Source: Candidatus Uhrbacteria bacterium (GTDB lineage: Bacteria > Patescibacteriota > Patescibacteriia > UBA9934 > GWF2-40-263). Taken from it: DNA of 64,000 nucleotides. A program made the position numbers and the translations under genes. This document shows, one piece after another, positions 5,748-57,925 of the stretch (the stretch's first letter is position 1; each line of letters opens with the position of its first letter). The notes under the pieces are model-generated. The model searched no databases. It was not told where the DNA came from and saw only the letters and a list, made by a program, of their open reading frames with translations. The DNA is taken from positions 13,650 to 77,649 of the forward strand of contig JACPHU010000009.1 in the NCBI GenBank assembly GCA_016188495.1, given 5' to 3'.

Positions 5748-5780
5748 TAAAACCTCCTAATGAAAATTAGGAGGTTTTTG
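5748..5780 (+). terminator. Rho-independent terminator after hisS
   Basis: aaacctcctaa-tgaaa-ttaggaggttt followed by ttttt. Confidence 0.7.
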
Positions 5781-12854: not shown

Positions 12855-12989
12855 AACTTACACACTTGGCCCATTTTGGGTTTATGGGGCCCCTGCGACT
12901 CATCACCGTATTATGAATACGGCTCTGTCGTCGCTTCCCCATGCACCCAAACTGGACTCAATTGTGCAAGTTCTAATAAGAGAAATGGT

Positions 12990-31524: not shown

Positions 31525-32082
31525 ATGCCTAAAGATGCACGATTTATTGATCCGGAGTCATCCAAAAAAAAGAGAGGCCGTGTTGAGACGCGTGAAGCGT
31601 CACCCGTTCCTTCTACATTGGAAACGGTTTCGGAACTTCCCTCCGCCGTTGAGACCAAGCAAGAACAACCCGAGCATTTTTTAGAAGGGGAAAGAGAGAT
31701 CGTACAAAAAGAAGCCTCATTGCCAGGCCGTCTTTCAACGACTCGCAAAACGGTTGCCAAGAAAAAAATTCAAGAAGATCGTTTGGAAGAGGAAATTGAG
31801 GATATTTTAGAAGAGGATCTAAAAGAATTATATTTATCTCTTCCTCCGAAAAAACAAGCCGAGTTCCGTTTGAAAGGAGAAGAAACGCGTTCACGCATTC
31901 GACAACTCGCCGGATCGTTGAAAATCAATGCAAAGAAAATTTTTCAACTGATCCGTGCGTGGTTAAAGGTGATTCCTGGCGTGAATCGATTTTTTCTTGA
32001 ACAGGCGGCGAAAATAAAAACAGATAAAATTTTGATGGTTGCAGAAGAAGAGCAAAAACAAAAACAAAAAGAAACCATGTGA
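31525..32082 (+). CDS. Hypothetical charged (Glu/Lys-rich) protein, ~185 aa
   Basis: Start moved to MPKDARF because ORF 31396 would read through the terminator. The stop overlaps the start of the following ATPase gene (ATGA). Confidence 0.45.
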   Translation: MPKDARFIDPESSKKKRGRVETREASPVPSTLETVSELPSAVETKQEQPEHFLEGEREIVQKEASLPGRLSTTRKTVAKKKIQEDRLEEEIEDILEEDLKELYLSLPPKKQAEFRLKGEETRSRIRQLAGSLKINAKKIFQLIRAWLKVIPGVNRFFLEQAAKIKTDKILMVAEEEQKQKQKETM

Positions 32083-34616
32083 TTTCCTTATTACAATTCG
32101 GCTTAGAAACAGATCCTCAATTGATTAAAACCGTAACAGCGTCGGCAGATTTTTCCATCCCGCCGTTTATCTTGTGGGGGTCGTTGCTGTTGGTTTTTTT
32201 GTTTTGTCTATTGTACGTATTGAGGTTTTTTATCAGACGTCTTTCGCTGGCCAGACAGGCTACGTTTCATCGTGTCACACTGCTGATTACGTTGCCAAAA
32301 TTCAGGCGCGAAGAAGAAAGTGAGAAAGGTCCTTCTAAGGATCAGGTCAAAGAAGCGATTGCTGCTGCGGAATCTTTTTTTTCCTCTCTTGGAGGTTTAA
32401 CGGTGCATCATGGTTTTAAATCGTGGCTGTTTGGACGTCATGACGAGTTTTCTTTTGAGATTGTCGTTGAGAAGAAATTGATCAAATTTTTTGTTACCGT
32501 TCCTGTCGAATTGCGTGATTTTTTGGAACAGCAATTATCGGCTGCTTATCCTGATTCGTTTACAGAAGAAGTCGAAGATTACAATATTTTTAAACCGGAC
32601 GGTGTCATTTTAGGAAGCCACCTCGTGTTGCGCCGTATCAGTTCCTTTCCGATTAAAACCTATACACAATTAGAGAAAGATCCTTTAAATACGATCACAA
32701 ACGTATTATCAAAAATTCCTGACGGAGACGGAGCCGCCTTTCAATTTCTTGTTCGGTCTTCTCAAGCAAAATGGAGAAACAGAGGAATAAAAATCGCTTC
32801 AAACATGCAACAGGGAATGAAGCTTGAAGAGGCTCTTCGTGGAAAAAAGAAAGGCAAGAGCAGTAGCTGGATGGAGTTGTCCGGCTTGAGCAGTCCCAAT
32901 AAGTCTCAAGAACCGCAGAAAGATTATCGTCTTTCTCCTTTAGAAGAACAGGTAGTCAAAGGGTTGGAAGAAAAGGCGAGTAAAGCCGGAATGGATGTGT
33001 GTATTCGGTTAGTGACTTGTTCGAAGTCAGCTGCTTCTGCACAAACTCTTTTGCAAAACATGCTCAACGTGTTTGCTCAATACAATATTTATGAGTATGG
33101 CAATTCGTTTGTAAAATCACTTCCTCATCGCAAAACGCGTTTAATTAAAGATTTTATTTATCGAGCTTTCGATGAGCAGCGAACGATCGTTCTCAACGCA
33201 GAAGAAATGGCGAGTTTATGGCACCTTCCTTTGCCTTGGACAGAGACTCCTAATATCAAATGGTTAGGATCTCGAAAAGGTCCCGCACCATCAGGGATTC
33301 CCGGACCAGAGGAAGGGGATATTGAGTTGGGTTACAACATGTTTCGCGGTATTAAAACTCCTATTTGGATGAACGCGATTGATCGTACTCGTCACATGTA
33401 CATCGTCGGAAAGTCGGGTTCTGGTAAATCTCAGCTGATTGCCAGGCTTGCGATTCAGGACATTCAGGCAGGACACGGCGTGGCCGTGGTAGAGCCTCAT
33501 GGAGATTTGGTGGAGTTGATTTTAAGGAATATTCCAAAAGAGCGGGTGGATGACGTTATTTTGTTTGATCCTTCCGATCTGGAACGACCGATGGGTCTTA
33601 ACATGCTTGAAGCCCCCACAGAGACCATGAAGGATTTTGCGGTTCAAGAAATGATTTCTGTTTTTTATAAATTGTTTCCACCGGAAATGATTGGTCCGAT
33701 GTTCGAGCACCAGATGCGCAATTTCATGCTGACTCTGATGTCCGACTTTGAAAATCCAGGGACGATTGCAGAGATCCCCCGCATGGTCACAGATAAAAAA
33801 TTTCAAGATAAGTGGCGGGCAAAATTGAAAGATCCTGTCGTTCGAAGCTTTTGGGAGGATGAAATTGATAACACCAGCGACTATCATAAATCAGAAATGA
33901 TGGGATATCTCGTTTCTAAAGTAGGACGTTTCGTGGAAAACGAGATGATGCGCAATATTATCGGCCAATCAAAGTCCAGCTTCAGTTTTCGTGAAGTGAT
34001 GGACCAGAAGAAAATTTTGCTCGTTAACCTTTCCAAGGGAAAAACAGGAGATGTAAATGCGGAACTATTAGGTTTGGTTATCGTGTCCAAGCTGCAGATG
34101 GCCGCTTTGACGCGTGCGGATATTCCAGAAGATCAACGCCATGATTTTTATCTGTATATTGACGAGTTCCAAAATTTTATTACGGATTCCATCGCAACCA
34201 TTTTGTCTGAAGCGCGTAAATATCGTTTGAATTTGATTATCGCCCATCAATACATCGGGCAGCTGGTAAAAAATAACGATACGAAAATTCGCGAAGCGGT
34301 GTTTGGAAACGTGGGAACAAACTTTGTGGCCCGTATCGGTCCTGAGGACGTAGAAACCTTAGGGAAAATTTATTCCCCCGAGTTTTCTGGATACGATCTT
34401 ATCAATTCAGACAAATTTACCTGGTACGTAAAAATGATCGTTGATAATGCCCAACAGAAACCGTTTACCTTGAACTTTACCCCTCCGCCAAAAGGCGACA
34501 CAGAGTTGGCCTCAGCCATCAAACAGCTATCGCGTCTAAAGTACGGAAGAGATCGTGCGCTGGTGGAAGCCGAAATTATGGAGCGCACTCAATTAGATGG
34601 TTCAGGGCGTTTATAG
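32079..34616 (+). CDS. TraD/VirD4/TraG-family (T4SS coupling-protein-like) P-loop ATPase with a membrane-anchored N-terminal domain of unknown function
   Basis: 845 aa with two N-terminal TMs. Walker A MYIVGKSGSGKSQLIARLA, Walker B FYLYIDEFQNF, downstream LNLIIAHQYIGQL. The first ~400 aa have no recognisable homology. Confidence 0.6.
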   Translation: MISLLQFGLETDPQLIKTVTASADFSIPPFILWGSLLLVFLFCLLYVLRFFIRRLSLARQATFHRVTLLITLPKFRREEESEKGPSKDQVKEAIAAAESFFSSLGGLTVHHGFKSWLFGRHDEFSFEIVVEKKLIKFFVTVPVELRDFLEQQLSAAYPDSFTEEVEDYNIFKPDGVILGSHLVLRRISSFPIKTYTQLEKDPLNTITNVLSKIPDGDGAAFQFLVRSSQAKWRNRGIKIASNMQQGMKLEEALRGKKKGKSSSWMELSGLSSPNKSQEPQKDYRLSPLEEQVVKGLEEKASKAGMDVCIRLVTCSKSAASAQTLLQNMLNVFAQYNIYEYGNSFVKSLPHRKTRLIKDFIYRAFDEQRTIVLNAEEMASLWHLPLPWTETPNIKWLGSRKGPAPSGIPGPEEGDIELGYNMFRGIKTPIWMNAIDRTRHMYIVGKSGSGKSQLIARLAIQDIQAGHGVAVVEPHGDLVELILRNIPKERVDDVILFDPSDLERPMGLNMLEAPTETMKDFAVQEMISVFYKLFPPEMIGPMFEHQMRNFMLTLMSDFENPGTIAEIPRMVTDKKFQDKWRAKLKDPVVRSFWEDEIDNTSDYHKSEMMGYLVSKVGRFVENEMMRNIIGQSKSSFSFREVMDQKKILLVNLSKGKTGDVNAELLGLVIVSKLQMAALTRADIPEDQRHDFYLYIDEFQNFITDSIATILSEARKYRLNLIIAHQYIGQLVKNNDTKIREAVFGNVGTNFVARIGPEDVETLGKIYSPEFSGYDLINSDKFTWYVKMIVDNAQQKPFTLNFTPPPKGDTELASAIKQLSRLKYGRDRALVEAEIMERTQLDGSGRL

Positions 34617-34816
34617 GAGATTTCTTCAAAACTCGCGATCTTACCTTTCACGGGGCCCCATTGGCTCGTCAGTCTTCGGCAAGCTCAGACTGACCCTGAG
34701 TCTATCGAAGGGTCACTGTATGTGAATACAGCTCTGTCGCCAACCCGCCCGGCCTTATGTCCGTTCGGACGGGTTTCCCCGTTCAAGGCAATCTCATCGA
34801 GTTTTGAAGAAATCTC
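34617..34816. repeat. MITE-like palindromic element, copy 1 (200 bp)
   Basis: Terminal inverted repeats gagatttcttcaaaactcgcgatctt...cacgggg / ccccgttcaaggcaatctcatcgagttttgaagaaatctc with internal hairpins. Homologous termini recur at 57512-57641. Confidence 0.7.
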
Positions 34817-37683: not shown

Positions 37684-37757
37684 TCCCGGATCGTCTAACG
37701 GCAGGACGACTGGTTCTGGTCCAGTTAATCGGGGTTCGAATCCCTGTCCGGGAACCA
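37684..37757 (+). tRNA. tRNA-Gln (anticodon CTG)
   Basis: U1-A72 acceptor tcccgga/tccggga, D arm gtc-taacggcag-gac, anticodon stem actgg/ccagt with loop ttCTGgt, T arm cgggg-ttcgaat-ccctg, encoded CCA. Confidence 0.85.
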
Positions 37758-37759
37758 AC

Positions 37760-37796
37760 AAAAGAACTCACCTTATCGGTGAGTTCTTTTGTTTTG
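37760..37796 (+). terminator. Rho-independent terminator after tRNA-Gln
   Basis: aaaagaactcacc-ttatc-ggtgagttctttt followed by gtttt. Confidence 0.75.
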
Positions 37797-37931
37797 AGGA
37801 CAGGGATTCGAACGGGAAGGGTTTTGGGAAGCACCTGTTTCTCCATCAGGCCTGATTTTGAAATTTCCTGACGAGGATCGAAAAGATAGCGATGAGGAAC
37901 AATTCTGGCCATTTCTGCCAACACCTCCAGC

Positions 37932-43825: not shown

Positions 43826-44254
43826 AGTTCATACATGATAACAAAAATTACCTAGAGTTCTAGGTGATTTTTGTGGTGAGCCCAAGGAAGGCTGTCATGA
43901 ACTACCTCGAACGAGCACGCGAGCTCATGCCAGTTATGATGGGATGGAATCGCGACGTTGCAGGGTTTTTGGAGCGTCCTCGTGGCATCCAGAGCCTTGT
44001 GGTGACGTACTAATGCGACGTATTATTGGAGGCATCAATCAAAACATAAACCTATGGGAACAGAACGAAAAGACGCCTTGATCAATGTGGTGCAACATCT
44101 GCCCGCAGCAGCGCAACGTCCAGCCGATAAACCAGCAGGGACGGTCGTTACGAGTAGTGGCGAGCGTGTCACATTGGGCGAGAAGCCGAGTCACAACACC
44201 GCCATACTCTCTACTCAACAGCGCATGAACACAAAGAAGCAGGGATAATGAGAT

Positions 44255-44677
44255 ATGCAAAGCCACTTTGTGATAGACCCATCCGTAAAAGATCAATTTG
44301 TAGAACTCCGAGCGCAAGGCATGAGCTTTGCGTCGATTTCGTCGCGCCTTAACGTCTCGAAAGGTACGCTCGTCGCGTGGAGCAAGGAGTTGAAGGACGA
44401 ACTCGGTAACATGCGACAAATCCAGCTTGAAGCCATACGTGAGAAGTTCCGCATGGGCTCGCAGCGTCGCATGGAGCTATTCGTCAAGCAGTTGGATGCC
44501 GTGGAAGGTGAACTGGCCACTCGCACCCTCGACATCGTCTCAACGGAAAAACTATTCGATATGCTTGTGAAGCTCGGCCATGAGCTTAACGCGACCGATG
44601 CACCGCTTACGTTCAAGGAACAATCAAAGGAGTTCGTTCTCGACGACATCGCGTGCATGTCTGTTTGGGAAGCATAG
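44255..44677 (+). CDS. HTH DNA-binding protein (phage/ICE-type regulator or terminase-small-subunit-like)
   Basis: 140 aa with HTH QGMSFASISSRLNVSKGTLVAW. Confidence 0.5.
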   Translation: MQSHFVIDPSVKDQFVELRAQGMSFASISSRLNVSKGTLVAWSKELKDELGNMRQIQLEAIREKFRMGSQRRMELFVKQLDAVEGELATRTLDIVSTEKLFDMLVKLGHELNATDAPLTFKEQSKEFVLDDIACMSVWEA

Positions 44678-44827
44678 AAAAATTTGAACATTCCTGTACG
44701 AAAAATGACCGTCCTCGCGGCGGTTGTTTTGATATTTTGAAACGTTCATCAGATGCCAGTAAATAAAAAGAGCGCATCCGACGAGACGTAAGCCGAGTGG
44801 CTCTTGCCCCGCGCGGATGCGCGAGTG

Positions 44828-45439
44828 TCACTTGAGGTGGATCAACTCCATACCGCTCGCTTCCATGTCCGAGTCGTCGGTATGAGTGTCTCCACCCTCG
44901 ACGAGCACAGAGGAATAGTACCCATCGCCACGCCCATACGAGTCGATGAACAGCTTGTGGCCGTTCTCGAACTCGATGACGAGTGCCACGCCGTTCTGCG
45001 TCATGGCAACCACATGGCCGTTGCCAGCGAGTGCGAGTTGCTTGGACAAGAAGGCGGAGACGGCCTCCGCGTGCTGTCGTGCGGCCTCTTCGTGCCTTCG
45101 TTTCTCCTCGTCCTTCCGCCATTGCTCGTTCTTGGCCTTCGCACTCGCATTGGTCAGGGTCATGTGGACACCGACCTTCTCGACCTCGTGCCACCCGCCG
45201 CCTTCGATCTTCTTCCGCTGCTGTTTGACCATGCGCGGCCGCTTGACGATGATTTCCTCGACCTCAGGACTCCCGTGCTGGATGCTGCGGTTCTTCCCGT
45301 CCATGATGAGTCGAGACACGTCTCCACCGTCTGATGCAAGGACGAGCTCCTCGCCCTCAACGCAAGCCGAGGAGACCATCTGCCGCCCAAGAACCCATCC
45401 GCCCTTCCCGATTTCCGCAATCAACTCCTGAATGTCCAT
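44828..45439 (-). CDS. Hypothetical protein (~203 aa)
   Basis: Start MDIQELIAEI preceded by SD gaggag. Competing same-region frames have Leu/Arg-rich, low-complexity composition typical of GC-rich noise. Confidence 0.45.
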   Translation of the reverse strand: MDIQELIAEIGKGGWVLGRQMVSSACVEGEELVLASDGGDVSRLIMDGKNRSIQHGSPEVEEIIVKRPRMVKQQRKKIEGGGWHEVEKVGVHMTLTNASAKAKNEQWRKDEEKRRHEEAARQHAEAVSAFLSKQLALAGNGHVVAMTQNGVALVIEFENGHKLFIDSYGRGDGYYSSVLVEGGDTHTDDSDMEASGMELIHLK

Positions 45440-45570
45440 GATGACTCCTCGGTATATGTGTGAGAGGTGGTATGCCTGCAAGTGAAAGAAACGACTGAAA
45501 AATATACCACAAAACAGCCTTTTGTCAATGGCCGCATGGTCGTTTTTGTGATAAAATGGCCTAAAATCCT

Positions 45571-47286
45571 ATGGAACAGCCAAATACAGACATACAACGC
45601 GTTGCAGAGCTCGTAGCACGCCTCCAAGCCCGTTTTGGTGCTCAAGGCGTCGCGGATGCTGCGGGTAAGGGTGAGTCCCTTCGATACGTCATGTATGTCC
45701 GTAAGAGCACGGATACGGCCGACAAGCAGCAGCGCACCATCGGCGACCAAATCGCCTCGTGCAAGGAATACGCCGACCGCTTCGGGTTGCGTTGGACAGA
45801 GCTCATCCATGAGGAGGAGTCCGCCATGGTCTCCGATGGTCGTCCAAAGTTTCGAGCCATGCTAAACGCCATCAAGGCGGGCACGTTCGATGCCATCCTT
45901 GCATGGGCTCCAGACCGCCTTTCGCGCAACATGAAGGAAGCGGGCGAGATTATCGACATGCTCGACCGAGGCGACATCAAAGACCTCAAGTTCGCCAACG
46001 GGTTCGTATTCGCCAATGAACCGTCGGGCAAGATACTACTCGGTATCACGTTTGTCATGGCCAAGCAGTACAGCGACCAACACTCCCAAAACGTCAGGAA
46101 CGCGATTCATCGAAAGACCGCCGAAGGTAAGTGGGCAGGGGGCCGCGTTAAGCACGGCTACTACCGAAGCACCGCGCATTACCTTCTTCCCGACGGCGAG
46201 AACCATGAGCTCATCAAGGACGTCTTCCGCCTTCGTCTTGAAGGCACGCCGCAGAAGGACATCGCGGCATACCTCATCGAACGCGGCTATCCCGTCCAGA
46301 CGCCGCATACTAAGCATCGCAAGCTCGTCATCGACGACAAGTTCGTCTCGGATATCCTTCACGACGCGTTCTATGTCGGCGCCATGAAGTTCAGTAAACA
46401 ATTCGTCAACCTATTCGACAAGTACGACTTCGTGCCAGCAGTCTCGATCGACGACTTCGAGCGACTCTACAAGAGCGAGGGCGAGAAAATGGGAATCGAC
46501 CTCAAGAAAATTCTCAATCCGCGTGTACAGATCAAGGCCGCGCTCATGCAACAATTTGTTACATGCGGACGATGCGGAAAGTTCATGTCAACGGGCATTA
46601 CCAAGGGCAAATACTATTTTCGTTGTGATTCACCCAAGGCCGTCTTCCCGATGCATGGCAAGTCTACTCGTGCGAAAGTGGTACTCGACGCCTTATACGA
46701 GTTTCTGGAACATCATCCGCTCATCACCAATGCGGGCTACAAGCATTACGTCGCCGAGATGCAGCACATCCTGTCCGAGCAAAGCAAGGAAGCGGAACGG
46801 GAGTTAAAGTCGCTCGTCGCGCAACGTCAGCACGCCGAGGAGCGCATGGAGGACATGAAGGAACTTGCGCGAGGAGCAAAGGGTGACAAGGTGCTTGTGA
46901 AGGAATATCAGGCCGACATGAAGGCGAGCCTTGCAAAGGCAAAGGAACTGTCGGCACAAATTACGAAGCTCAAGATTGAACACCTCAACCCAAAGGAAGC
47001 AATCGCTACATTTGAAGAGTTCCATGAACTGTTTGCAAATCTTGCTCAACTCATACAAAAAATAGACAGCATGGCGGATTTGGATAGTATCATCAAAAAA
47101 ATCTTCATGAACGTCACGGTCACCGACCAAAAAGTCACTCAAATAACACAAAACTCCCCTTTCAGGGAGCTGTGTGTGGACGCCGATTCGGCGATGGTGA
47201 CCCTTCGGAGACTTCCTTGGAACCAATTTATGGAAGAGTTGAGGATGTGGATGCAGTTTCAGGAAATGTGTTTGGCTGAAATGTAA
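45571..47286 (+). CDS. Large serine recombinase (integrase)
   Basis: Resolvase catalytic domain YVMYVRKSTDTADKQ (nucleophilic Ser) and APDRLSRN, a recombinase domain, a Zn ribbon CGRCGKF...FRCDSP, and a C-terminal coiled coil. Confidence 0.85.
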   Translation: MEQPNTDIQRVAELVARLQARFGAQGVADAAGKGESLRYVMYVRKSTDTADKQQRTIGDQIASCKEYADRFGLRWTELIHEEESAMVSDGRPKFRAMLNAIKAGTFDAILAWAPDRLSRNMKEAGEIIDMLDRGDIKDLKFANGFVFANEPSGKILLGITFVMAKQYSDQHSQNVRNAIHRKTAEGKWAGGRVKHGYYRSTAHYLLPDGENHELIKDVFRLRLEGTPQKDIAAYLIERGYPVQTPHTKHRKLVIDDKFVSDILHDAFYVGAMKFSKQFVNLFDKYDFVPAVSIDDFERLYKSEGEKMGIDLKKILNPRVQIKAALMQQFVTCGRCGKFMSTGITKGKYYFRCDSPKAVFPMHGKSTRAKVVLDALYEFLEHHPLITNAGYKHYVAEMQHILSEQSKEAERELKSLVAQRQHAEERMEDMKELARGAKGDKVLVKEYQADMKASLAKAKELSAQITKLKIEHLNPKEAIATFEEFHELFANLAQLIQKIDSMADLDSIIKKIFMNVTVTDQKVTQITQNSPFRELCVDADSAMVTLRRLPWNQFMEELRMWMQFQEMCLAEM

Positions 47287-47436
47287 CTAATCGTGGAATT
47301 ACTGTTTGATTGTGGAGATGGCAAATTTGAGACAATTCCAATAATTGCCCCAATTCCCAACAAACTCCAAATGATTATTTTTCGACGTATAAAATCTAAG
47401 CTTGTTTTCCAATAATCTTGCCATAAGATCGTTGTT

Positions 47437-47991
47437 TTATTTGTTCTTTTCAAGAAATAAATTTCCAGTAAGAATATAAACCAAAATTATTTTTAAACTT
47501 AATCCTAAAAGGATCAACAATATTGAAAAACCAACGAGAAAAGAGATATCGTAGAACAAAATATATTGATTGATAACCATTTTTTCTTGTGTGTGTTCAC
47601 GTATAGACCAATATCCTGAGCAATTAGTCCCAAAGATTGAGCATTCAGTGATAGGGCCATCTTTAGAACTAATTTCAGAAACAAACTTAGAAAATTCTTT
47701 TGGACATTTTTCTTCAAACCAACTTCGATAAAGACTAATTTTGTTGGTAATACTTGGTTGATTAAAACTTTCAAAAATAAAACTTTCATTTTCCTTTATT
47801 TCATTTGGAATATCCTTCTCACTCAAAACACAACCTTCTTGAGCTGGAGATTTTAATGTAATTGCTTGATATCTATACTCATTATCGAATAACTTAAGAG
47901 AAGACAAAACTAATAGAAGCGATAATCCAAGATAAAAAATTTTTAATAATCGAAACCATGGTGAACTAAAAAATCCTTTTGTTGTTTCCAT
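47437..47991 (-). CDS. Hypothetical membrane protein in AT-rich cargo (~184 aa)
   Basis: Start METTKGFF. TM at the N-terminus and near the C-terminus. A 150+ codon ORF in ~28% GC DNA is unlikely by chance. Confidence 0.5.
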   Translation of the reverse strand: METTKGFFSSPWFRLLKIFYLGLSLLLVLSSLKLFDNEYRYQAITLKSPAQEGCVLSEKDIPNEIKENESFIFESFNQPSITNKISLYRSWFEEKCPKEFSKFVSEISSKDGPITECSIFGTNCSGYWSIREHTQEKMVINQYILFYDISFLVGFSILLILLGLSLKIILVYILTGNLFLEKNK

Positions 47992-48034
47992 ATTTTCATT
48001 GTATTGACCCAGATGGAATCTTTGAGAGATCACT

Positions 48035-48187
48035 ATGCCACCTTATGCACCAGATCATAATCCGATTGAACATGTTTGGAATACAGCGAAAGGGGAAACA
48101 ACAAACATTCAACAGGAAAACTTTGAAGCAATGAAAATAACTTTTCATAATTTTATTGATGGACGAAATTTCAATTATGCAATTTAA
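48035..48187 (+). pseudogene. IS630/Tc1-mariner-family transposase C-terminal remnant
   Basis: Translates to MPPYAPDHNPIEHVWNTAKGETTN...FHNFIDGRNFNYAI, the conserved PPYSPDLNPIE catalytic-E region. No upstream DDE domain. Confidence 0.7.
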
Positions 48188-48212
48188 CAGTTTGTTTTGG
48201 GATGGCTATAAA

Positions 48213-48671
48213 TTAGAAAGAGGATATCCAACATAACTCAATTTTTTCAAAAAGTTTTTGCTGATTTTGAGATGAATTCCATTTTTTCAGATTTTCAAAA
48301 AATAAATCTTCGTAATCATTACCTGCTAAAGTATTTAAAGCTTCTAAGTAAACATGTACTTCATTATAAATAGAACTACATGAGCTAGCTTCAGTGAACC
48401 TATTATCATTTACTTGATTGATAAATTCTTGTTCTACTAAATTTAAAAATTCTTTTTTAAGCTCACCTTCATTATTTAAAGAAAAATTATTAATCTGTCT
48501 GTGAAGTTCTTTATTATCCTCATCCAATATATCTGTTTTTCCATTTAAAATAACTTTCTCAGTTTCTAGTGTACCAATTTTGTTCTTCAATATTTCAATT
48601 TCAGTGCATAAGTATGCAATCATTCCAATAAAACTGATTCCAACAATAATCCACAATAAATATTTTTTCAT
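48213..48671 (-). CDS. Hypothetical protein with N-terminal TM/signal anchor and coiled coil (152 aa)
   Basis: MKKYLLWIIVGISFIGMIAYL then a heptad-like region; AT-rich. Confidence 0.45.
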   Translation of the reverse strand: MKKYLLWIIVGISFIGMIAYLCTEIEILKNKIGTLETEKVILNGKTDILDEDNKELHRQINNFSLNNEGELKKEFLNLVEQEFINQVNDNRFTEASSCSSIYNEVHVYLEALNTLAGNDYEDLFFENLKKWNSSQNQQKLFEKIELCWISSF

Positions 48672-49030
48672 ATCTTAGTTAAAAATAATTTAATCATCAT
48701 GAGAGGTTGGCAATAAAGCCCCCAAAATCATAAGTCCTAAAAAGACTAAAATTGCATCTAAAAACATATTATTTTCTTTCTTTTAAAAACACAAAGCCCT
48801 CCGCCAGCCGCAGTCTTTCGACTGCCTGTATCCATTTCTGGGTACAGCCATCCCTGGTTGCTGAACGAAGGGTCCAGTATCAGGGATGGATTTGTGCCAT
48901 GCCTTACATGTGCAAGGTTTAGGCATCTATTTTAATTGTGAGTTTAGTGTAGAGAATTGAGACAAACATGACAAGCAAATAATCAAAAATCTTTAAAATT
49001 TAAAGGATTTTTGTTAAAATATACTCATAA

Positions 49031-49783
49031 ATGAAAATGATTATGAGAAAAGATTTAAAAGAAGAATTCGAATCTCTGATAAAAGAGGGATACGAAATTA
49101 CAAGAATTGCCGATGAAGGTCTAGAACAACACTCGGCTACCGCAACACTAATCCATGAAATTCATCATAAGTTTATAATGTGGAAACAAAGTGCGAAGGA
49201 TCTTTTAAAAGATGAGGCTAAAAATGAAGAATTAGATATTGGATTTCTATTTGAAGGAGATGGAGTACCTTTAATCAAAGCTGGACCAGAATACAGCGAC
49301 CCAATGAGTGAACGATCACAAAAATTATTTACAAACATTCGTATAGCAGCCTCCAGTCATTTGAGAAAAATAAAAGAAATTTATGAAGAGGTGGAGAAAA
49401 ATTTTAAGATTAAAAAATCATTTATTGTCAGAATTAAAAATATTTCTCTTTCCAAGGAAGATTGTTTATTAAAAATAAATGATGGTGAAAAAATAATCTT
49501 CTTTAAATCAAAAAAAGGAAAAGAAGATTTTGAAAAAGAAACCAAACAGTTTAAAATTTTGTACCATCTTTGGGAGTTTCGACAAGAAAAAAAAGGAAGT
49601 AGCATTTTAAAAAAAAGTGAAATTGTTACACTAAAAAATCTTCAAATTTGTAGTCAAAGTAAAAGTGCATCCGCAGTCAGTAAAACTATTGAGAGATTAA
49701 ATAAAAGATTTAAAAAAGAAGGGGTAACTATAGAGATAGAATGTGAAAATGAAAAATGTCGTCTAATTATAGAAAAGACCTAG
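49031..49783 (+). CDS. Hypothetical Lys-rich protein (250 aa)
   Basis: Long ORF in ~28% GC DNA. No recognised motifs. The C-terminal ~70 aa may be a winged-helix-like domain; weak. Confidence 0.45.
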   Translation: MKMIMRKDLKEEFESLIKEGYEITRIADEGLEQHSATATLIHEIHHKFIMWKQSAKDLLKDEAKNEELDIGFLFEGDGVPLIKAGPEYSDPMSERSQKLFTNIRIAASSHLRKIKEIYEEVEKNFKIKKSFIVRIKNISLSKEDCLLKINDGEKIIFFKSKKGKEDFEKETKQFKILYHLWEFRQEKKGSSILKKSEIVTLKNLQICSQSKSASAVSKTIERLNKRFKKEGVTIEIECENEKCRLIIEKT

Positions 49784-49957
49784 ACGGTTTCTTGACTATT
49801 TCTACGACATTATTTTTTTCTATTTTTTTAAAAAACAGTAGGAATTTGTAAAAAGTTTAAAAAAATTCGACATCAAAACAAATATTTAAAACTTATCACA
49901 AAAAACAGTTGCTAAAGTCGAAGTATAAAAGCTTCGATTTTTTTATTCTAAATTTTT

Positions 49958-50218
49958 ATGACTATGACTACGCACGGGATTCAAGAAAATGAAATTTACC
50001 GAACATCGGATTTTTCTCAGGCAATTGCACTTTATTGTCTTGATTTTGTTCTGGAAGCAGTTGATAAAACAACGCCAAATAGGTGTGGATTCTTGTTTAA
50101 ACGGACATGCGAACTTGATCGGGCTATCGAATGGTTCTGGAAACGTGAGCTTCGTATTGAACCTCAGGCTTATTTTCAGGCTTCTAAGGTCTTGCGGACG
50201 CGTCTACATGACCGTTAA
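49958..50218 (+). CDS. Hypothetical small protein (86 aa)
   Basis: ORF upstream of the primase gene. A second ~56-aa ORF at 50224-50394 overlaps the primase start. Confidence 0.35.
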   Translation: MTMTTHGIQENEIYRTSDFSQAIALYCLDFVLEAVDKTTPNRCGFLFKRTCELDRAIEWFWKRELRIEPQAYFQASKVLRTRLHDR

Positions 50219-50359
50219 GACCTATGCTCAGCATTGCCCGAACAAAGGAACTCATCGGCTATGCATCTATCTCGGATGAACAGGCGGAAGCTATCCGAGA
50301 CCAGTTTCGTGATCTCGCAGAATTGATTTTTATAAATTGGAAAACTAACTTGAAACAAT

Positions 50360-52249
50360 ATGACAATGAATCCTCAAACAATCCCAATTAGTGAATACCT
50401 TGACCGGAAGGGTATCGAATACCGGGAACAAGAAAACGAGCTGATAGCACGCTGTATTTTCCACGACTGTGACGATGATAGTAAAGGTATAGAGGCACAT
50501 TGGTATATCAACAAGCACACAAGCCAGTACGACTGCAAAAAATGTGGTCAACAAGGCAACATTTTTACTCTAAGAGAACATTTTGACGATCCAATGTCAG
50601 AAGTCCTTCTTGATGGTGCAAAAGCACTTAACGACCACCCTATAAAGAATGAGTTATTAAATACAGCACAAAACATCTGGAACTCATCAACACAGGTTCC
50701 CAAAGAGTTTGCCTATACGATAAAAAAGAGAATCTCTACGCACGGATCACGCTTCAAGGATGGTAATTTGGTTCTCCCAATGTATAACGGAAACGGCACG
50801 CTAATTTCTCTTCAATTCATTCAAGCAGACGGAAAGAAAAAGTTTCTGCCTGGAGGTAAAACAGTCGGGTCTTATTACATCATTGGCGAAGTGAAAGACG
50901 TTATATGTATTGCGGAAGGATTTGCAACCGCGGCTAGCATTCTTGAAGCAACAGGACATGCTGTCGCCATTGCCTTTTCTGCCGGGAATCTTAAAGCAAC
51001 GGCTCAGGCGATCAAAAACAAGTACACTAATGTAAAGCTAATTGTATGCGCGGACATTGACGATTATGGTCTTACCAAGGCCAAAGAGGCAGCTCAGGTC
51101 GTCAGTGCCTTTCTCGCTATACCTGTCTTTAAACCTGAAGAACGGATCGATGAAAAACCTCCTACGGACTTTAATGATCTGGCTATTTTGCAGAGTGCAG
51201 AAAAAGTGAAGAAAACAATCGAATCGGCAGAAAAAGTAAAAAACAAGTATCAATTCACAGCACTTGCGGACTTATTAGAGGAACCGGAAGAAAAAATTGA
51301 GTGGATCGTTGAAGATCTTCTTCCTCATGGTGGTTTCTCCATCATCGTCGCGAAACCAAAAGTTGGTAAATCTACACTGGTAAGACAACTTGCGTTTTGT
51401 GTTGCAAGCGGAAGCACTTTTCTAGGAAGAACTACGAGCAAGGGGCGCGTTCTCTACTTATCGCTTGAAGAAAAACGTAGCGAAGTGCGGAACCATTTTA
51501 GAATGCTTGGAGCAACCAGAGAGGAAGACATCGGGATTTGTTTTGATCAAACACCAGAAAATGCTCTCGAGTGGTTAAGAGAAGAAATCGATCGATCCGC
51601 GCCAGTGCTGGTCATTATTGATACCTTATTCCGATTCGCACGCGTTTCTGATGTAAATGACTATGCAAAAACACTGGCCGCTCTTGATCCGCTTCTGTCG
51701 CTTGCACGAAGTCACTCCGTACACGTTATGGGCGTTCATCACGCCAGAAAAGGTGATGGGTTTGGGGCAGATACTACATTGGGTTCAACGGCCATTTTTG
51801 GAAGTGTAGATACAGCTATCGTTTTAAAACGAACCGATAGCAAACGCACAGTCGAAACCCAGCAACGCTATGGGGTGGATATGGAACCAACCGTTCTAAC
51901 ATTTGATCCTGATACAAAACGCACCGAGTTAGGCGAAATAAAACAACAGGACGATGTTCAGGGTATCAAAGATGAGATTATTGCTTTTCTTCAATCTGAA
52001 AGTGAATCATCCACAGAAAAGACGATCACTGAAAATACAGAAGGTCGGACTAAGTTAAAACGAAAGGCTTTACGCGATCTTGTTGTCGAAGGTTTGGTGG
52101 CGCGAACAGATTCCGGAAAGAAAGGCGATCCCTACCATTATTCTTGTTCCCTTGTTCCCGCTATATATACGGAACAAGGGAACAAGCAATCGAATGATGG
52201 TGTTGAGCGAAAAACGGACGATCAAATTCTTGAAGAACTTGGTTTATAA
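50360..52249 (+). CDS. DNA primase (CHC2 zinc finger plus TOPRIM) fused to a C-terminal RecA-like/P-loop (AAA_25, RepA-like) domain
   Basis: Zn finger CIFHDCDDDSKGIEAHWYINKHTSQYDCKKCGQQG. TOPRIM VICIAEGFATAAS...VCADIDDYG. P-loop GGFSIIVAKPKVGKSTLV...LYLSLEE. Confidence 0.75.
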   Translation: MTMNPQTIPISEYLDRKGIEYREQENELIARCIFHDCDDDSKGIEAHWYINKHTSQYDCKKCGQQGNIFTLREHFDDPMSEVLLDGAKALNDHPIKNELLNTAQNIWNSSTQVPKEFAYTIKKRISTHGSRFKDGNLVLPMYNGNGTLISLQFIQADGKKKFLPGGKTVGSYYIIGEVKDVICIAEGFATAASILEATGHAVAIAFSAGNLKATAQAIKNKYTNVKLIVCADIDDYGLTKAKEAAQVVSAFLAIPVFKPEERIDEKPPTDFNDLAILQSAEKVKKTIESAEKVKNKYQFTALADLLEEPEEKIEWIVEDLLPHGGFSIIVAKPKVGKSTLVRQLAFCVASGSTFLGRTTSKGRVLYLSLEEKRSEVRNHFRMLGATREEDIGICFDQTPENALEWLREEIDRSAPVLVIIDTLFRFARVSDVNDYAKTLAALDPLLSLARSHSVHVMGVHHARKGDGFGADTTLGSTAIFGSVDTAIVLKRTDSKRTVETQQRYGVDMEPTVLTFDPDTKRTELGEIKQQDDVQGIKDEIIAFLQSESESSTEKTITENTEGRTKLKRKALRDLVVEGLVARTDSGKKGDPYHYSCSLVPAIYTEQGNKQSNDGVERKTDDQILEELGL

Positions 52250-52352
52250 CATTCTCAGACATTATAAGAAATTCTAGGAGATATCCCAATAACCTAACTC
52301 GTCTAATCCTTAATGATTTCGGTCAAAACAAAAGTGAAACAGAGGTAAATTT

Positions 52353-52976
52353 ATGGCAAGAGGCACTTGTGAGGGGCGCACAAAAATATCAATCTTTTGG
52401 CTACGACAAAAGGGATATCTGACTCCTGATATGCCTTGGCGATGGGACTCCTTGAGTTGGACAAACACTTATTCAGGCGAGAGTGCTGGGAGTTTGAGTT
52501 ATCAAATCAAGCTTGATGAGAACAAAGAACCAAACAGCAAAGTAGGGTATATGAGGTTGATGTATACCAATACGAGCGCTTGGTCGGGTGAAAAGACTGA
52601 AATTGATTACGAGATTCCTATTGTCACCACAGGATGCAATTATGGAGGCATTCGTTTCTGGTTCAGATGTCCTCTTAACGCAAACGGCGTTTACTGTGGA
52701 AGACGGATTGGGGTTTTATACAAGATTTCACAGTATTACGGTTGTCGCCATTGCGGAGACCTTGTGTATGCTGCGCAAAATGAAAAAAAGAGTTCTAGGG
52801 ACATGGTTTGCTGCCCTGATCTTGATAAAGCCCACGACAATATCAGACGCTTCCATTACAACGAAAAGCCGACGAAAAAGTACAGAAAATATCTCAAATT
52901 GGAGCAAAAATTTAATGATCAGATCCAGGGATGGATGATTCGCATGGCTTCAGATGATAAAGATTTTGTGCTATGA
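52353..52976 (+). CDS. Hypothetical protein with a Cys4 zinc-ribbon (207 aa)
   Basis: CPLNANGVYCGRR...CRHCGDLVY. Confidence 0.45.
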   Translation: MARGTCEGRTKISIFWLRQKGYLTPDMPWRWDSLSWTNTYSGESAGSLSYQIKLDENKEPNSKVGYMRLMYTNTSAWSGEKTEIDYEIPIVTTGCNYGGIRFWFRCPLNANGVYCGRRIGVLYKISQYYGCRHCGDLVYAAQNEKKSSRDMVCCPDLDKAHDNIRRFHYNEKPTKKYRKYLKLEQKFNDQIQGWMIRMASDDKDFVL

Positions 52977-53139
52977 TACAAGTGTTGACCCAATGCTTTC
53001 ATGCCCGTTTTTTGATCATTTTTGTTGTCCATAATGGGCGGCTTCTGCCAACAAAGTGGTCTTCGGGCTATGCGTTGGGTCAACCAGAGCCGCCCTTTTG
53101 GTTATTAGGATGTAAGAAATTGTAAGATACATAGATCAC

Positions 53140-54684
53140 ATGAAAGCCATCATCTACACACGTGTTAGCTCTAACGAGCAGGTTAAAGGAACCTCACTCG
53201 AAGACCAAGAAACCAAATGTCGAGAGTATTGTGCTCAAAAAAACATTGAGGTTTTGAAAGTTTTTCGAGAAGAGGGTGAGTCTGCCAAAACTGCGGATCG
53301 TACCGAGTTTTTAAGAGCTTTAGAATTTTGTCGAAAGAATAAAAGTAAAGTCGATATTTTTGTTGTGGTTAAAGTGGATCGCTTTGCTAGAAATACAGAA
53401 GACCATTTTGGAGTACGTAAAATTCTACTCGACTACGGTGTGTCTTTGCATTCCGTCACCGAACCAATAGGAAACAGTCCAGTTGAAAAGCTACTTGAGA
53501 CCGTTCTTGCTGGCACAGCAGAATTTGATAATGCAATCCGCTCACAGAGAAGTATTGATGGGATGATCGCACGCGTTCGACAAGGCATCACACCTTGGAA
53601 ACCGCCGATTGGATATTTAAGTAACCAATCAAAAAAACGAGGAGAAAAGAAAAACGAACCTGACGAAATAGATCCTGCAATTTTCCCCATTATTCAACGA
53701 ACACTAAAGCGTTTTTCCAGAGAGGAGATTGAGCAGTCGGAATTATGTGCTTATTTGGATCAGGAAGGTCTATCAAAAATTCGAGGTCGAAAAACTACCA
53801 AACAGATGGTTGAAAAAATTATCGGTCAGTATTTGAAATTTTACGCTGGTATAATCATGAACCCTTGGCTTGAAGGTGAAGAGATCAGGGGATTGCATCG
53901 TGCGATGATTACCGAAGACGAAATGCATCAGATTATCGCCATTCGGACAGGTAAATATATTAAGAAACAGCCACGTAAGAGTTTTAACCCACTTTTTCCT
54001 CTAAAGAAAACAATCGTGTGTGGAACCTGTGACGGAAACCTCACAGCAAGTCGATCAAAAGGGAATGGGGGAGAGTACGGTTACTATCACTGCTACAGTC
54101 CGTCTTGTGAGATGCGAAATAGAACAATTGCGAAAGATATTGTGGAAAGGGAATTCATTCAGCTTTTACAAACTCTGAGACCAAGCAGACAGCATCTATC
54201 TCTACTTCGAGAAACTGTTATGGATCTTTGGGAGGAAAAAAGAGAATTATTTGAATCGGATGCGAGTAAATTTAAGAAACAACTCGATTCCCTCACAGTT
54301 AAGCGTCAGAGAATTTTTGATATGCGTGAGGACGGTTCGTATACCAAGGAAGATTTTTTGGAACGTAAAGCTGAGATCGATAATGAAATGGCCGCAGTTC
54401 GTATATCGTTGAATGAATCCAAGATTGATCAATTTGATATTGAAGCAGCGATCACTTACGCAACGAAGTTCGTTGAGAACCTTGATCGTCAATGGGTGGA
54501 TCTAAAAGATGATCTCAAACCTCGGTTCCAAAAACTGATTTTTCCAGAAGGAGTTCTTTATTTTAAGGATCATGGTTTTCAAACCACGAAATTGTCGCTG
54601 ATGTTACAACAAAAAGAGACCGCTCGTGATGAGCAGTCCCTTTTGGTGACCCCACGGGGAATCGAACCCCGATTTACAGGATGA
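53140..54684 (+). CDS. Large serine recombinase (integrase) overlapping tRNA-Glu
   Basis: MKAIIYTRVSSNEQ (nucleophilic Ser), VKVDRFARNTEDH, recombinase domain, Zn ribbon CGTCDGNL...YYHCYSPSCE, coiled coil. Its last ~41 nt overlap the 3' part of tRNA-Glu on the opposite strand. Confidence 0.85.
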   Translation: MKAIIYTRVSSNEQVKGTSLEDQETKCREYCAQKNIEVLKVFREEGESAKTADRTEFLRALEFCRKNKSKVDIFVVVKVDRFARNTEDHFGVRKILLDYGVSLHSVTEPIGNSPVEKLLETVLAGTAEFDNAIRSQRSIDGMIARVRQGITPWKPPIGYLSNQSKKRGEKKNEPDEIDPAIFPIIQRTLKRFSREEIEQSELCAYLDQEGLSKIRGRKTTKQMVEKIIGQYLKFYAGIIMNPWLEGEEIRGLHRAMITEDEMHQIIAIRTGKYIKKQPRKSFNPLFPLKKTIVCGTCDGNLTASRSKGNGGEYGYYHCYSPSCEMRNRTIAKDIVEREFIQLLQTLRPSRQHLSLLRETVMDLWEEKRELFESDASKFKKQLDSLTVKRQRIFDMREDGSYTKEDFLERKAEIDNEMAAVRISLNESKIDQFDIEAAITYATKFVENLDRQWVDLKDDLKPRFQKLIFPEGVLYFKDHGFQTTKLSLMLQQKETARDEQSLLVTPRGIEPRFTG

Positions 54685-54718
54685 GAACCTGCTGTCCTAA
54701 CCGTTAGACGATGAGGCC
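54644..54718 (-). tRNA. tRNA-Glu (anticodon CTC)
   Basis: Minus strand ggcctca-tc-gtct-aacggtta-ggac-a-gcagg-ttCTCat-cctgt-aaat-cgggg-ttcgatt-ccccg-tggggtc-a-CCA. U33 and A37 are present; the acceptor stem has two G-U pairs. Confidence 0.7.
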
Positions 54719-54867
54719 TTGAAGGAAGATTTATTGGAACGTGCCGAGAATATCATGAGTCTCGATCTTTTTCAAGATTCAAAAAACCACTTAATTTCTT
54801 CATGTACCTACGGACAGACAGGCGCGTCTGACATCCAATTGAGAACGTCCTATGATATAATGATCTT

Positions 54868-56529: not shown

Positions 56530-57512
56530 GCCATGGATTTTTTGCCGATTCTAAAGAATGGATAGCGGATGATTCTGGCGTGCGAGAACGGTATTTAGCT
56601 TTTTTTGAAAAGCAGTTAGGGCTTCTTCATGAGGGTCCGACACCTGAAACAGGATTCATCCAAAAGGGTATTTTAGAAAGAAAACAGGTTTGTGAGGACG
56701 TAAAATTAAAACAGACAAAACACGGATTGTTTGTGGTTGCCGATGGCGAGGATTGGTTGAGTTCGCGCGAAGCCGTCAGAACGATGTCCCAACATCTAGG
56801 GGAAATATTGGATCAGCAAGCAAAAAATGTGTGCGATCATTCCCACCCGGAAGAGACTCTTGACCGGCTTACCCGCTTTGTGGCGACAGTGTTGAAAACA
56901 AGCGTATTGATTGCGGACCATCGTATTCATGTTGCATGGTTGAATGCTGAGTCCGAAATTTCAGGAACAACGCTCTCTTGCGGAAGGCTTCTCTCTATTT
57001 CAGACACCACAGGCGATTCCCTTCATCGTTTCTTTTTTCTGAATTTAGGAAACAGTCGCATCTATCTCTGTAGAAAAAACAGGACCTTTCAGAAATTAAC
57101 CGTTGACGATACCAATCTTCAACAATGGGTTCATGAAGGCAAGCTGACTCCTGAAGAATTTTTTCAGATCGATCAAGCCCTAAGTCCAAAGCATCTCCCG
57201 CGAAAACTGTTTGCGTACGCAACCCATCTTAATCGTTTTCGTCTCACACGACGTCTTGGAAGAGGGGAGATTTCCGAAAACGCACCATTTGTTTCTTTTG
57301 TTGATCTGCAACCAGGCGAGCGCATCGTCATGACAACCAATGGAGTAAGCGATCAGCTTCTTGAGTCTGAAATACAAGCTCATCTTTTCCAACACAAAAA
57401 CGACCATGCGGCCGAACGTTCTTTGCAGCAAGCCGCCCTAGAGCGTTCTTTAGACGGTAGACATCCACGCGCGATTGCAGATGATCTATCGGCATTAGTA
57501 CACACGGTATAG
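56526..57512 (+). CDS. PP2C-like (SpoIIE/PPM-fold) domain protein with a degenerate metal-binding motif
   Basis: GLFVVADGEDW (canonical DGxGG reduced), LNLGNSRIYL, VMTTNGVSDQL. Its start overlaps the antiporter stop. Confidence 0.55.
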   Translation: MSHGFFADSKEWIADDSGVRERYLAFFEKQLGLLHEGPTPETGFIQKGILERKQVCEDVKLKQTKHGLFVVADGEDWLSSREAVRTMSQHLGEILDQQAKNVCDHSHPEETLDRLTRFVATVLKTSVLIADHRIHVAWLNAESEISGTTLSCGRLLSISDTTGDSLHRFFFLNLGNSRIYLCRKNRTFQKLTVDDTNLQQWVHEGKLTPEEFFQIDQALSPKHLPRKLFAYATHLNRFRLTRRLGRGEISENAPFVSFVDLQPGERIVMTTNGVSDQLLESEIQAHLFQHKNDHAAERSLQQAALERSLDGRHPRAIADDLSALVHTV

Positions 57513-57641
57513 AGATCTCTACAAAACTCGCGATCTTGCCCTTCACGGGCGCCCGTCGACCCCGTTCTCCCTACTCTGAGTAGGGTTCTCGGTGCTCGAC
57601 AGCCCGTTCAAGGCAATCTCATCGAGTTTTGTAGAGATCTC
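57512..57641. repeat. MITE-like palindromic element, copy 2 (130 bp)
   Basis: gagatctctacaaaactcgcgatcttgcccttcacggg ... cccgttcaaggcaatctcatcgagttttgtagagatctc. The termini are homologous to copy 1; the interior differs. It begins inside the TAG stop of the upstream gene. Confidence 0.7.
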
Positions 57642-57699
57642 ATAAGAATCATCCATTAAAAACTTCAAAGGAAGAGATACTCCTGAATTTTTTTGGGTG

Positions 57700-57739
57700 T
57701 TGACAGGAAGAATTAGCACTCTATAATAGGGAGTGCTAA
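57700..57739 (+). promoter_or_regulatory. Consensus sigma-70 promoter (TTGACA-16-TATAAT) overlapped by a perfect CIRCE operator (TTAGCACTC-N9-GAGTGCTAA)
   Basis: ttgaca ggaagaattagcactc tataat; CIRCE ttagcactc tataatagg gagtgctaa at 57713-57739; ~190-nt leader before hrcA. Confidence 0.85.
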
Positions 57740-57925
57740 TTTATGTATGGTGCTGTTTACCAATGAGATGAGATTGCAACGTTTGGGCTGGTAGTCGCTG
57801 AAAGCGTCTAAAAACGGACGTTGATCCTTCGATAAACTCAGGATCAGTCTGAGCTTCTCGAAGACTGAAGCGAGTCTCGGGTACTCAAACGTTGCAAGAT
57901 CGCTCATTGGGGAGCAGTCCCTATT

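Follow-up and report, generated by a model that had tools for sequence, protein, structure and literature searches.

The window analysed here, that is the whole 64-kb stretch of Candidatus Uhrbacteria contig JACPHU010000009.1, contains four copies of a palindromic repeat (copies 1 to 4; Table 1). The reading put forward, to which I assign a probability of about 0.7, is that these repeats are members of one family of mobile, non-autonomous DNA elements, which behave like MITEs (miniature transposable elements with inverted repeats), resemble REPINs in form, and are so far confined to Candidatus Uhrbacteria (Patescibacteria, or candidate phyla radiation, CPR). The window is chromosomal DNA, its genes including cysS, dnaX, uvrB/uvrA, hrcA-grpE-dnaK and mraZ/mraW, and the proteins it encodes share 92-98% identity with their counterparts in metagenome-assembled genomes (MAGs) of Uhrbacteria such as GW2011_GWF2_39_13.

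The original prediction, made from the letters of the window, described a MITE-like palindromic element present twice, with shared termini, unrelated interiors, and a stop codon at the start of each copy. The two repeats, copies 1 and 2, are there as described: their left ends (34617-34659 and 57512-57554, 43 nt) are 86% identical and their right ends (34778-34816 and 57603-57641, 39 nt) 95% identical. The position at a stop codon is likewise confirmed, for copy 1 begins directly after the TAG (34614-34616) of a T4CP-like ATPase gene, and the first G of copy 2 is the last base of the TAG (57510-57512) that ends a PP2C-like gene. The count and the description of the interiors need correction. 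A covariance model, trained on 23 standard copies and applied to the window and to fetched loci (designated by L numbers below), detected copies 3 and 4 as well, the model matches spanning 12849-12978 and 57747-57923. The inner stems and the apical hairpin are common to all copies, and the interior of copy 1 corresponds to that of copy 3 plus two inserted hairpin modules; hence the interiors are not unrelated.

The two additional copies also lie at gene boundaries. Copy 3 retains the hairpin and has lost the internal motif described below; it occupies the uvrB-uvrA spacer, its first three bases, TAG, being the stop codon of uvrB. Copy 4, flanked by TAT at 57746-57748 and at 57922-57924, sits in the leader of hrcA, which encodes the heat-shock repressor, between a CIRCE/sigma-70 promoter (57700-57745) and the start codon (57926); it ends some 3-4 nt before the hrcA ATG, and its hairpin stands there in its most stable orientation.

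A genome-wide search for the terminal repeat had been proposed along with the prediction. In a scan of genomes the exact 19-mer of the right arm gave 23 matches, located in six Uhrbacteria MAGs, in one bin of an unclassified bacterium and in one bin labelled Gammaproteobacteria; beyond those bins it matches unrelated genomes by chance only. In every true match the left arm lies 107-250 nt from the right arm. With the covariance model the family rises to about 48 distinct copies, in at least eight Candidatus Uhrbacteria genomes and in groundwater metagenomes, about 14 copies being contributed by the metagenome scan and at least 14 residing within the single MAG nzgw366. Throughout the genome, metagenome and viral scans a copy measures 107-244 bp, which is below the approximate 400 bp expected of a MITE, and holds no transposase gene; the open reading frames (ORFs) that read through copies are artefacts of the repeat. 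The G+C content (GC) of the elements is 44-63% (mostly 54-61%) and that of the host loci 41-57%, while arm identity between genomes reaches 93%. Nearly identical arms in hosts of such different composition indicate that the element crosses species boundaries.

No trace of the family was found in other collections: two scans of viral contigs, with either arm, gave chance matches alone, none of them upheld by the covariance model, and copy 1 had no BLAST match among phages or plasmids in the collections searched. No Rfam family reaches the gathering threshold on any copy, with only noise at E values up to 10, and in the literature searched there is no description of a comparable repeat family in CPR/Patescibacteria. 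At locus L038 a full copy is immediately adjoined by a second, diverged element, of which only the right half is present (7246-7310), in a truncated or nested arrangement.

The case for mobility comes first from empty sites. All four window copies are absent at the orthologous sites of close relatives. A case in point is L042, whose flanks are 96-98% identical to the window at the nucleotide level and whose 84-nt PP2C-hrcA spacer contains neither copy 2 nor copy 4; where the window has copy 4, L042 shows a clean gap of 177 nt, which falls between its positions 2975 and 2976. Removing copy 2 together with one ATA restores GTA TAA, and the insertion therefore went into the stop codon. As to copy 1, the spacer after the T4CP-like gene is only 52 nt long in L097 and L098 and 2 nt in L100; as to copy 3, the uvrB-uvrA spacer measures 3 nt in L102 and L103 and 5 nt in L104. 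The relatives have copies of their own at other sites (L046 5541-5673, L097 2147-2313, L102 7301-7467), of which the last interrupts the intrinsic terminator after hisS precisely at its loop and is accompanied by a duplication of AAAT; the orthologous terminator of the window (5749-5778) is intact.

Target duplications provide a second line of evidence. With the element boundary fixed at GAGAC...GTCTC, 19 of the 46 copies are bordered by direct repeats not shorter than 3 nt (3 nt in five, 4 nt in ten and 5 nt in four). When right flanks were permuted among copies, a mean of 1.8 copies showed such a repeat, with a maximum of 9 in 5000 trials. The duplicated sequences are varied and often A+T-rich (ACTTC, AGTAT, TGTGT, GTTTA, CATG, TTAA, TGAT, AAAT). 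Dispersed copies in many genomes, four empty sites and direct repeats far above chance thus bear out the MITE-like mobile element of the original prediction. Its tentative link to IS630/Tc1-type MITEs fares differently, since duplications of 3-5 bp and of varied sequence are not TA and so remove the basis for it.

Every copy is a single long imperfect palindrome. Hereafter E+ denotes the element in the reading that copies 1 and 2 have on the plus strand of the window, and E- its complement, the better-folding strand. On E- the outer stem is 19 bp long, usually GAGACCUCUGCAAAACUCG with its complement; its sequence varies and its pairing is kept, and it supplies the terminal inverted repeats of a MITE, the whole element being palindromic. 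Inward of it follow a bulged A, three pairs (U·G, G-C, A-U) and a symmetric tandem G·A loop, and further inward a 7-bp stem, a 2x2 loop, a 5-bp G/C stem and an apical domain with a small terminal hairpin. Long variants (142-244 nt) carry additional hairpin modules in the apical domain; copy 1, for instance, combines the standard outer stem, the internal motif and the inner stems with three apical hairpins.

The best-conserved part is not the termini but the bulge and tandem-G·A motif, GAUGAGAU/AGAUCGC, which lies 18-19 bp from each end. When copies are anchored on this motif, its box A (GATGAGAT) is exact in 43 and its box B (AGATCGC) in 38 of the 48 copies; per-position conservation is 96-100% in the two boxes as against 57-82% in the terminal GAGAC. 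Copy 4 and the copies in L097, L046 and L071 have entirely different outer stems, and their boxes still lie 18-19 nt from the ends. The double-stranded DNA of the two arms diverges exactly at the motif (CGATCTT versus ATGAGATT); the boxes are fold partners and not two copies of one binding site. The family signature is a structure on one strand rather than conserved termini. Two known RNA motifs were considered for GAUGAGAU and rejected by inspection: a hammerhead, because the core CU is UC here and there is no three-way junction, and a kink-turn, because the tandem G·A does not adjoin a 3-nt bulge.

Two optional modules deserve separate mention. One, of 47 nt, is known from three elements only, namely copy 1, copy 4 and L028 (6946-6993). 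It folds into a hairpin in two steps (CUUCGA/UCGAAG and CUCAG/CUGAG). The 7-nt loop of this hairpin, GGUCAGU, shows complementarity to the module's flank on either side (UGACC and ACUGA), so that a pseudoknot or an alternative two-hairpin fold is possible; in the module of copy 4 a C-to-U change in the flank is paired with a G-to-A change in the loop. The other, a G+C-rich hairpin (CCCGCCCGAACGA...TCGGGCGGG), occurs in long variants of different genomes. Its presence on either side of the apical hairpin suggests that modules are exchanged between copies.

Copies 1 and 2 fold far beyond their shuffled counterparts on both strands (z from -7 to -11), the minus strand being the more stable, with -97.5 versus -81.3 kcal/mol for copy 1 and -82.7 versus -70.3 kcal/mol for copy 2. 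In a MAFFT alignment of 23 copies, 97.2% of cells are in standard pairs, double-sided (compensatory) changes affect 24 of 49 pairs, and none of 500 shuffles matches any of the observed pairing measures; when partners are slid by 1-3 columns, pairing falls to 36-45%. The structural covariation that was to be sought with RNAalifold on a larger set is thus present. The original prediction had noted that two transitions between the left arms of copies 1 and 2 give G-U pairs on the minus strand and A-C mismatches on the plus strand, and had seen therein a sign of selection on a minus-strand structure. This holds and can be generalised: over the 23 aligned copies, 77 cells are G-U on E- (A-C or C-A in plus-strand letters) versus 7 on E+, and RNAalifold gives -75 kcal/mol for E- versus -50 for E+. 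At pairs 10/127 and 34/104, E- displays the series C-G, U-G, U-A, a path that is expected if E- must stay paired. Mutation bias was rejected as the source of the asymmetry, for C-to-T changes on the usually exposed sense strand would yield the opposite one. Hence, selection of the pairing on one strand, the window minus strand for copies 1-3, is supported.

DNA energy parameters give the same strand preference as RNA parameters; therefore folding cannot separate RNA from single-stranded DNA, and the folded form of E- may be either of the two. This bears on the proposal, in keeping with the minus-strand RNA of the original prediction, that the copies are genes for small RNAs, or antisense RNAs, transcribed from the well-folding strand. 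The G-U asymmetry and the covariation on that strand are in line with it, and so is the internal motif, since tandem G·A loops accompanied by a bulged A are frequent building blocks of RNA. Yet DNA folding shows an equal asymmetry, insertion sites vary between genomes, no conserved sequence or promoter-like motif is found in the 60 nt upstream of E- in 34 copies, and the window copies have no sigma-70-like site except for the hrcA promoter; a small or antisense RNA thus appears very improbable. Likewise, that E- acts as an RNA, be it antisense or terminator-like, is not shown: the terminator scan returned no terminator-like site at copies 1, 2 and 4 (those scanned), and the flanks of copies 1 and 2 lack the T-runs of an intrinsic (Rho-independent) terminator.

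Copies are found preferentially at the ends of genes. The median distance to a gene 3' end is 16 nt, versus 210 nt to a 5' end (p = 0.0007), and 18 of 40 distances to 3' ends fall between -13 and +7 nt; in nine copies the stop codon lies partly or wholly within the element. Both ends of the element read GAG, so that a preceding T or TA yields TGA or TAG (T|GA, TA|G). Orientation is biased as well: among genes ending within 60 nt, E+ is the sense strand in 20 and E- in 6 (p = 0.009), and among genes starting within 150 nt downstream the figures are 17 for E+ versus 3 for E-. An orientation linked to replication was rejected, GC skew giving 25 versus 17, which is not significant. The strand with the conserved structure is thus usually not in the mRNA, which argues against a role of the structure in sense RNA; the bias would result if the most stable hairpin were selected against in transcripts, or if propagation included a strand-specific step. 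Two copies (L024, around 7400, and L013, around 3760) lie within a few bases of tRNA genes, and gene ends other than protein stop codons are therefore also used.

These positions might be taken to mean that the repeat is mainly a cis-acting RNA element of the host (a terminator, a site of RNase processing or a stabiliser of transcript 3' ends) whose function keeps it at gene ends, with mobility being incidental or past. Comparable cis-acting roles have been described for REP, ERIC and Correia elements; hairpins that are very stable on both strands, the closeness to 3' ends, an orientation that follows neighbouring genes and not GC skew, one copy in a terminator loop and another in the hrcA leader would all agree with such a function. 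It is opposed by the close relatives, which lack all four window copies, so that none is needed at those genes; by the lack of a T-run after the hairpin and of terminator-like sites at the copies scanned; by the strand of the selected structure, usually antisense to the mRNA; and by the lack of an Rfam match. On balance a mainly cis-acting role is improbable. That copies 1-3, which place hairpins of 124-200 nt directly after three genes, and copy 4, between the CIRCE operator/promoter and the hrcA ATG, could have local effects is inferred only.

The search for a mobilising enzyme was made in the neighbourhood of the copies. An all-against-all BLAST of 189 flanking ORFs yielded artefacts spanning the repeat, NUDIX hydrolases and two PF05635 proteins only. 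No cognate full-length insertion sequence (IS) is present among some 60 matches of the genome, metagenome and viral scans, a search which did not extend to whole genomes; nor is there a longer element sharing the arms, for both arms lie within 250 nt of each other in every genome and metagenome match. The 388-aa gene that two inverted copies bracket in L014 has no Pfam or NCBIfam match. The IS630-family transposase remnant that the original prediction placed in the window was not recovered, as no DDE_3 or IS630 match was obtained in the window ORFs scanned, although that scan is not exhaustive for short remnants. The only transposase-like signal of the window is a 140-aa ORF (44255-44677) with weak matches to HTH_Tnp_1 (E = 4e-4) and to the IS1 family (E = 0.0016); it belongs to the high-GC part of an integrated element (see below), and its flanks bear no resemblance to the ends of the repeat. 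The PF05635 genes (23S rRNA intervening-sequence protein, Avd-like; L011 1789-2211 and L038 3935-4324) belong to one MAG, at distances of 2-3 kb from copies; theirs is the sole non-housekeeping family to recur near the elements, and its recurrence is probably a coincidence.

An alternative source of mobility would be a REPIN/REP-like or IS200/IS605-derived palindrome, moved as a single-stranded DNA hairpin at replication forks by an HUH tyrosine transposase (RAYT or TnpA). In its favour is the long hairpin in which changes compensate each other, a feature reported for REPINs too (PMC3116915). The strand-specific structural signal with its bulged base, the conservation of the internal motif above that of the termini, the preference of DNA energy parameters for the same strand and the failure to find a DDE transposase point in the same direction. 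Transposition of the IS200/IS605 type, however, produces no target duplication and inserts beside a fixed tetra- or pentanucleotide, whereas varied duplications are found here at 19 of 46 copies, with no conserved flanking tetranucleotide or other motif, so that the absence of duplication and the fixed flanking motif of REP/REPIN-RAYT systems are both wanting. Orientation is independent of GC skew, and neither a RAYT nor any other Y1 transposase adjoins a copy in about 0.35 Mb of flanking loci, complete genomes lying outside that search. A tyrosine-transposase palindrome is, all considered, quite unlikely.

Several points weigh against a MITE-like mobile family too. No autonomous partner or transposase stands next to any copy, the flanking genes being unrelated housekeeping genes. 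Duplications are seen in 41% of copies only and vary in length from 3 to 5 bp, and the comparison of copy 4 with L042 fits a TAT duplication only if an extra 1-nt indel is allowed. In principle, an empty site might also have arisen by loss of a copy instead of marking a gain in the window; the spacer of L097 weakly resembles the ends of copy 1. The termini are less conserved than the internal motif, unlike what is expected for a classical DDE transposase.

How a MITE-like family of this kind might spread can be sketched as follows. Propagation would pass through, or be selected on, a single-stranded folded form of E-, whether DNA or RNA; an enzyme acting in trans would recognise the box A/box B motif in the hairpin and act at the stem base, some 19 bp from the motif; and the gene-end positions would largely reflect the insertions that a compact genome tolerates. 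In its most specific version, the mover would be no classical transposase that binds double-stranded ends; a structure-reading enzyme would recognise the bulged A and tandem G·A on the folded single strand and cut or join at a fixed 19 bp from them, leaving short duplications of variable length; the idea is speculative, and its odds are low. The folded strand could be single-stranded DNA, for example complementary DNA made on sense transcripts as template; the usual antisense orientation of the well-folding strand relative to genes would then be accounted for. If true, this would be a transposition mode joining hairpin recognition of the REPIN/attC kind with target duplication, and to my knowledge none has been described in bacteria.

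The coordinates of the elements and of their parts are collected in Table 1.

Table 1. Copies of the repeat in the window, their parts, and elements of other loci (L numbers) that carry the second optional module.
Feature	Position	Strand (for copies, the better-folding one)	Basis or remark
Copy 1, long variant, 200 bp	34617-34816	-	covariance model, 76 bits on minus strand, 36.7 on plus
Copy 2, standard variant, 130 bp	57512-57641	-	118.9 bits on minus strand
Copy 3, 124 bp, most diverged	12852-12975	-	71.8 bits
Copy 4, 173 bp, opposite orientation	57749-57921	+	56.4 bits
ATA, left 3-bp direct repeat of copy 2	57509-57511		sequence; comparison with L042
ATA, right 3-bp direct repeat of copy 2	57642-57644		sequence
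Box A of copy 1, GATGAGAT	34791-34798	-	contributes the bulged A and half of the tandem G·A loop
Box B of copy 1, AGATCGC	34635-34641	-	pairs with box A
Box A of copy 2, GATGAGAT	57616-57623	-	sequence
Box B of copy 2, AGATCGC	57530-57536	-	sequence
Optional 47-nt module of copy 1, hairpin	34669-34715	-	89% complementary to 57822-57868
Optional 47-nt module of copy 4	57822-57868	+	counterpart of the copy 1 module
Copies with the second module	L014 2556-2721 and 5932-6098; L030 3806-3975; L097 2147-2313; L102 7301-7467		

Other features of the window may be described briefly. The promoter upstream of hrcA-grpE-dnaK is a perfect sigma-70 promoter (TTGACA-16-TATAAT) that overlaps a canonical CIRCE operator (TTAGCACTC-N9-GAGTGCTAA); in L042 the hrcA start codon is within about 10 nt of the promoter, and the leader is therefore very short there. 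The T4CP-like ATPase (32079-34616) comprises DUF8128 and TrwB/TraG domains, and the small gene that precedes it has a weak match to a MobP3 relaxase (E = 0.0012). The order cysS, small gene, T4CP, small gene, dnaX is conserved in Uhrbacteria that are 85-96% identical (L097 and L100 included); the ATPase therefore looks like a core gene of the lineage and not like part of a conjugative island.

The region 43900-54720, beside a tRNA-Glu gene (54644-54718, minus strand), is a probable integrated mobile element. Two large serine recombinases are encoded there, at 45571-47286 and at 53140-54684, together with a primase-helicase of the Toprim/AAA_25 type (50360-52249) and a LOOT RNA (48810-48925, minus strand, 74 bits). 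The GC is uneven, with 54% at 44-46 kb but 29% at 48-50 kb. About 20 nt beyond a tRNA-Gln gene (37684-37757) lies an inverted partial copy of its 3' end (37784-37813, 80% complementary), possibly left over from a former integration site.

The genomes of CPR/Patescibacteria are very small and densely packed; as the family shows, genomes of this kind nevertheless harbour an active non-coding mobile element. Such a compact genome tolerates it at stop codons that are rebuilt by the element's own ends, in terminator loops and in leaders. In practical terms, the repeats can break or mis-join the assemblies of uncultivated Uhrbacteria genomes, and they are usable as a strain-typing marker. An invariant internal loop, variable termini and a signature on one strand also make the family well suited to the question of whether some bacterial MITEs are recognised as folded single strands.

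Among known systems, integron attC sites are similar in architecture. They are imperfect palindromes of 57-141 nt located right after a stop codon, and they are recognised as a folded single strand by their structure (bulged bases, an internal loop and a variable terminal structure), one strand being active. The Uhrbacteria element differs in that it has no cassette arrays, no RYYYAAC/GTTRRRY core sites and no nearby integrase; its copies are single, dispersed among housekeeping genes and accompanied by target duplications, and they end in GAGAC...GTCTC. The resemblance is architectural only.

The Correia (NEMIS), ERIC/IRU and RUP repeats are palindromic intergenic repeats of 100-170 bp, which form hairpins in transcripts and lie close to gene ends; the Uhrbacteria element shares the palindromic intergenic hairpin and the closeness to gene ends. 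Correia and RUP elements produce TA duplications, and their terminal inverted repeats are well conserved and traceable to known IS families, whereas 3-5 bp of any sequence are duplicated here and the conserved core is internal. Bacterial MITEs, repeats of the Correia/ERIC type included, have been reviewed (PMC3184786). Among them, bcr1 of the Bacillus cereus group is a non-coding dispersed repeat of about 155 bp whose positions differ between close strains, with flanking 5-bp direct repeats and a long fold maintained by compensatory base changes (Delihas 2011, PMC3184786). Both bcr1 and the Uhrbacteria element are small dispersed repeats with short direct repeats and a compensatory long fold. 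They are unrelated in sequence and in host phylum; the direct repeat is reported as fixed at 5 bp in bcr1 and varies from 3 to 5 bp in the Uhrbacteria element, and in the latter the termini vary between subfamilies, the internal loop motif being the invariant part.

In REPINs the hairpin is the replicating unit, compensatory changes are common and a single-stranded intermediate has been proposed (PMC3116915). The Uhrbacteria element has in common with them a hairpin unit of about 100 nt, the compensatory changes and the lack of a transposase inside. Unlike REPINs, it duplicates its target, no RAYT was found near any copy, and it shows no identifiable REP unit with a terminal GTAG/CGTC tag, GTAG being found inside the apical stem only. 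To sum up, the Uhrbacteria family stands apart from classical MITEs by its internal invariant part and from REPINs by the duplication of its target.

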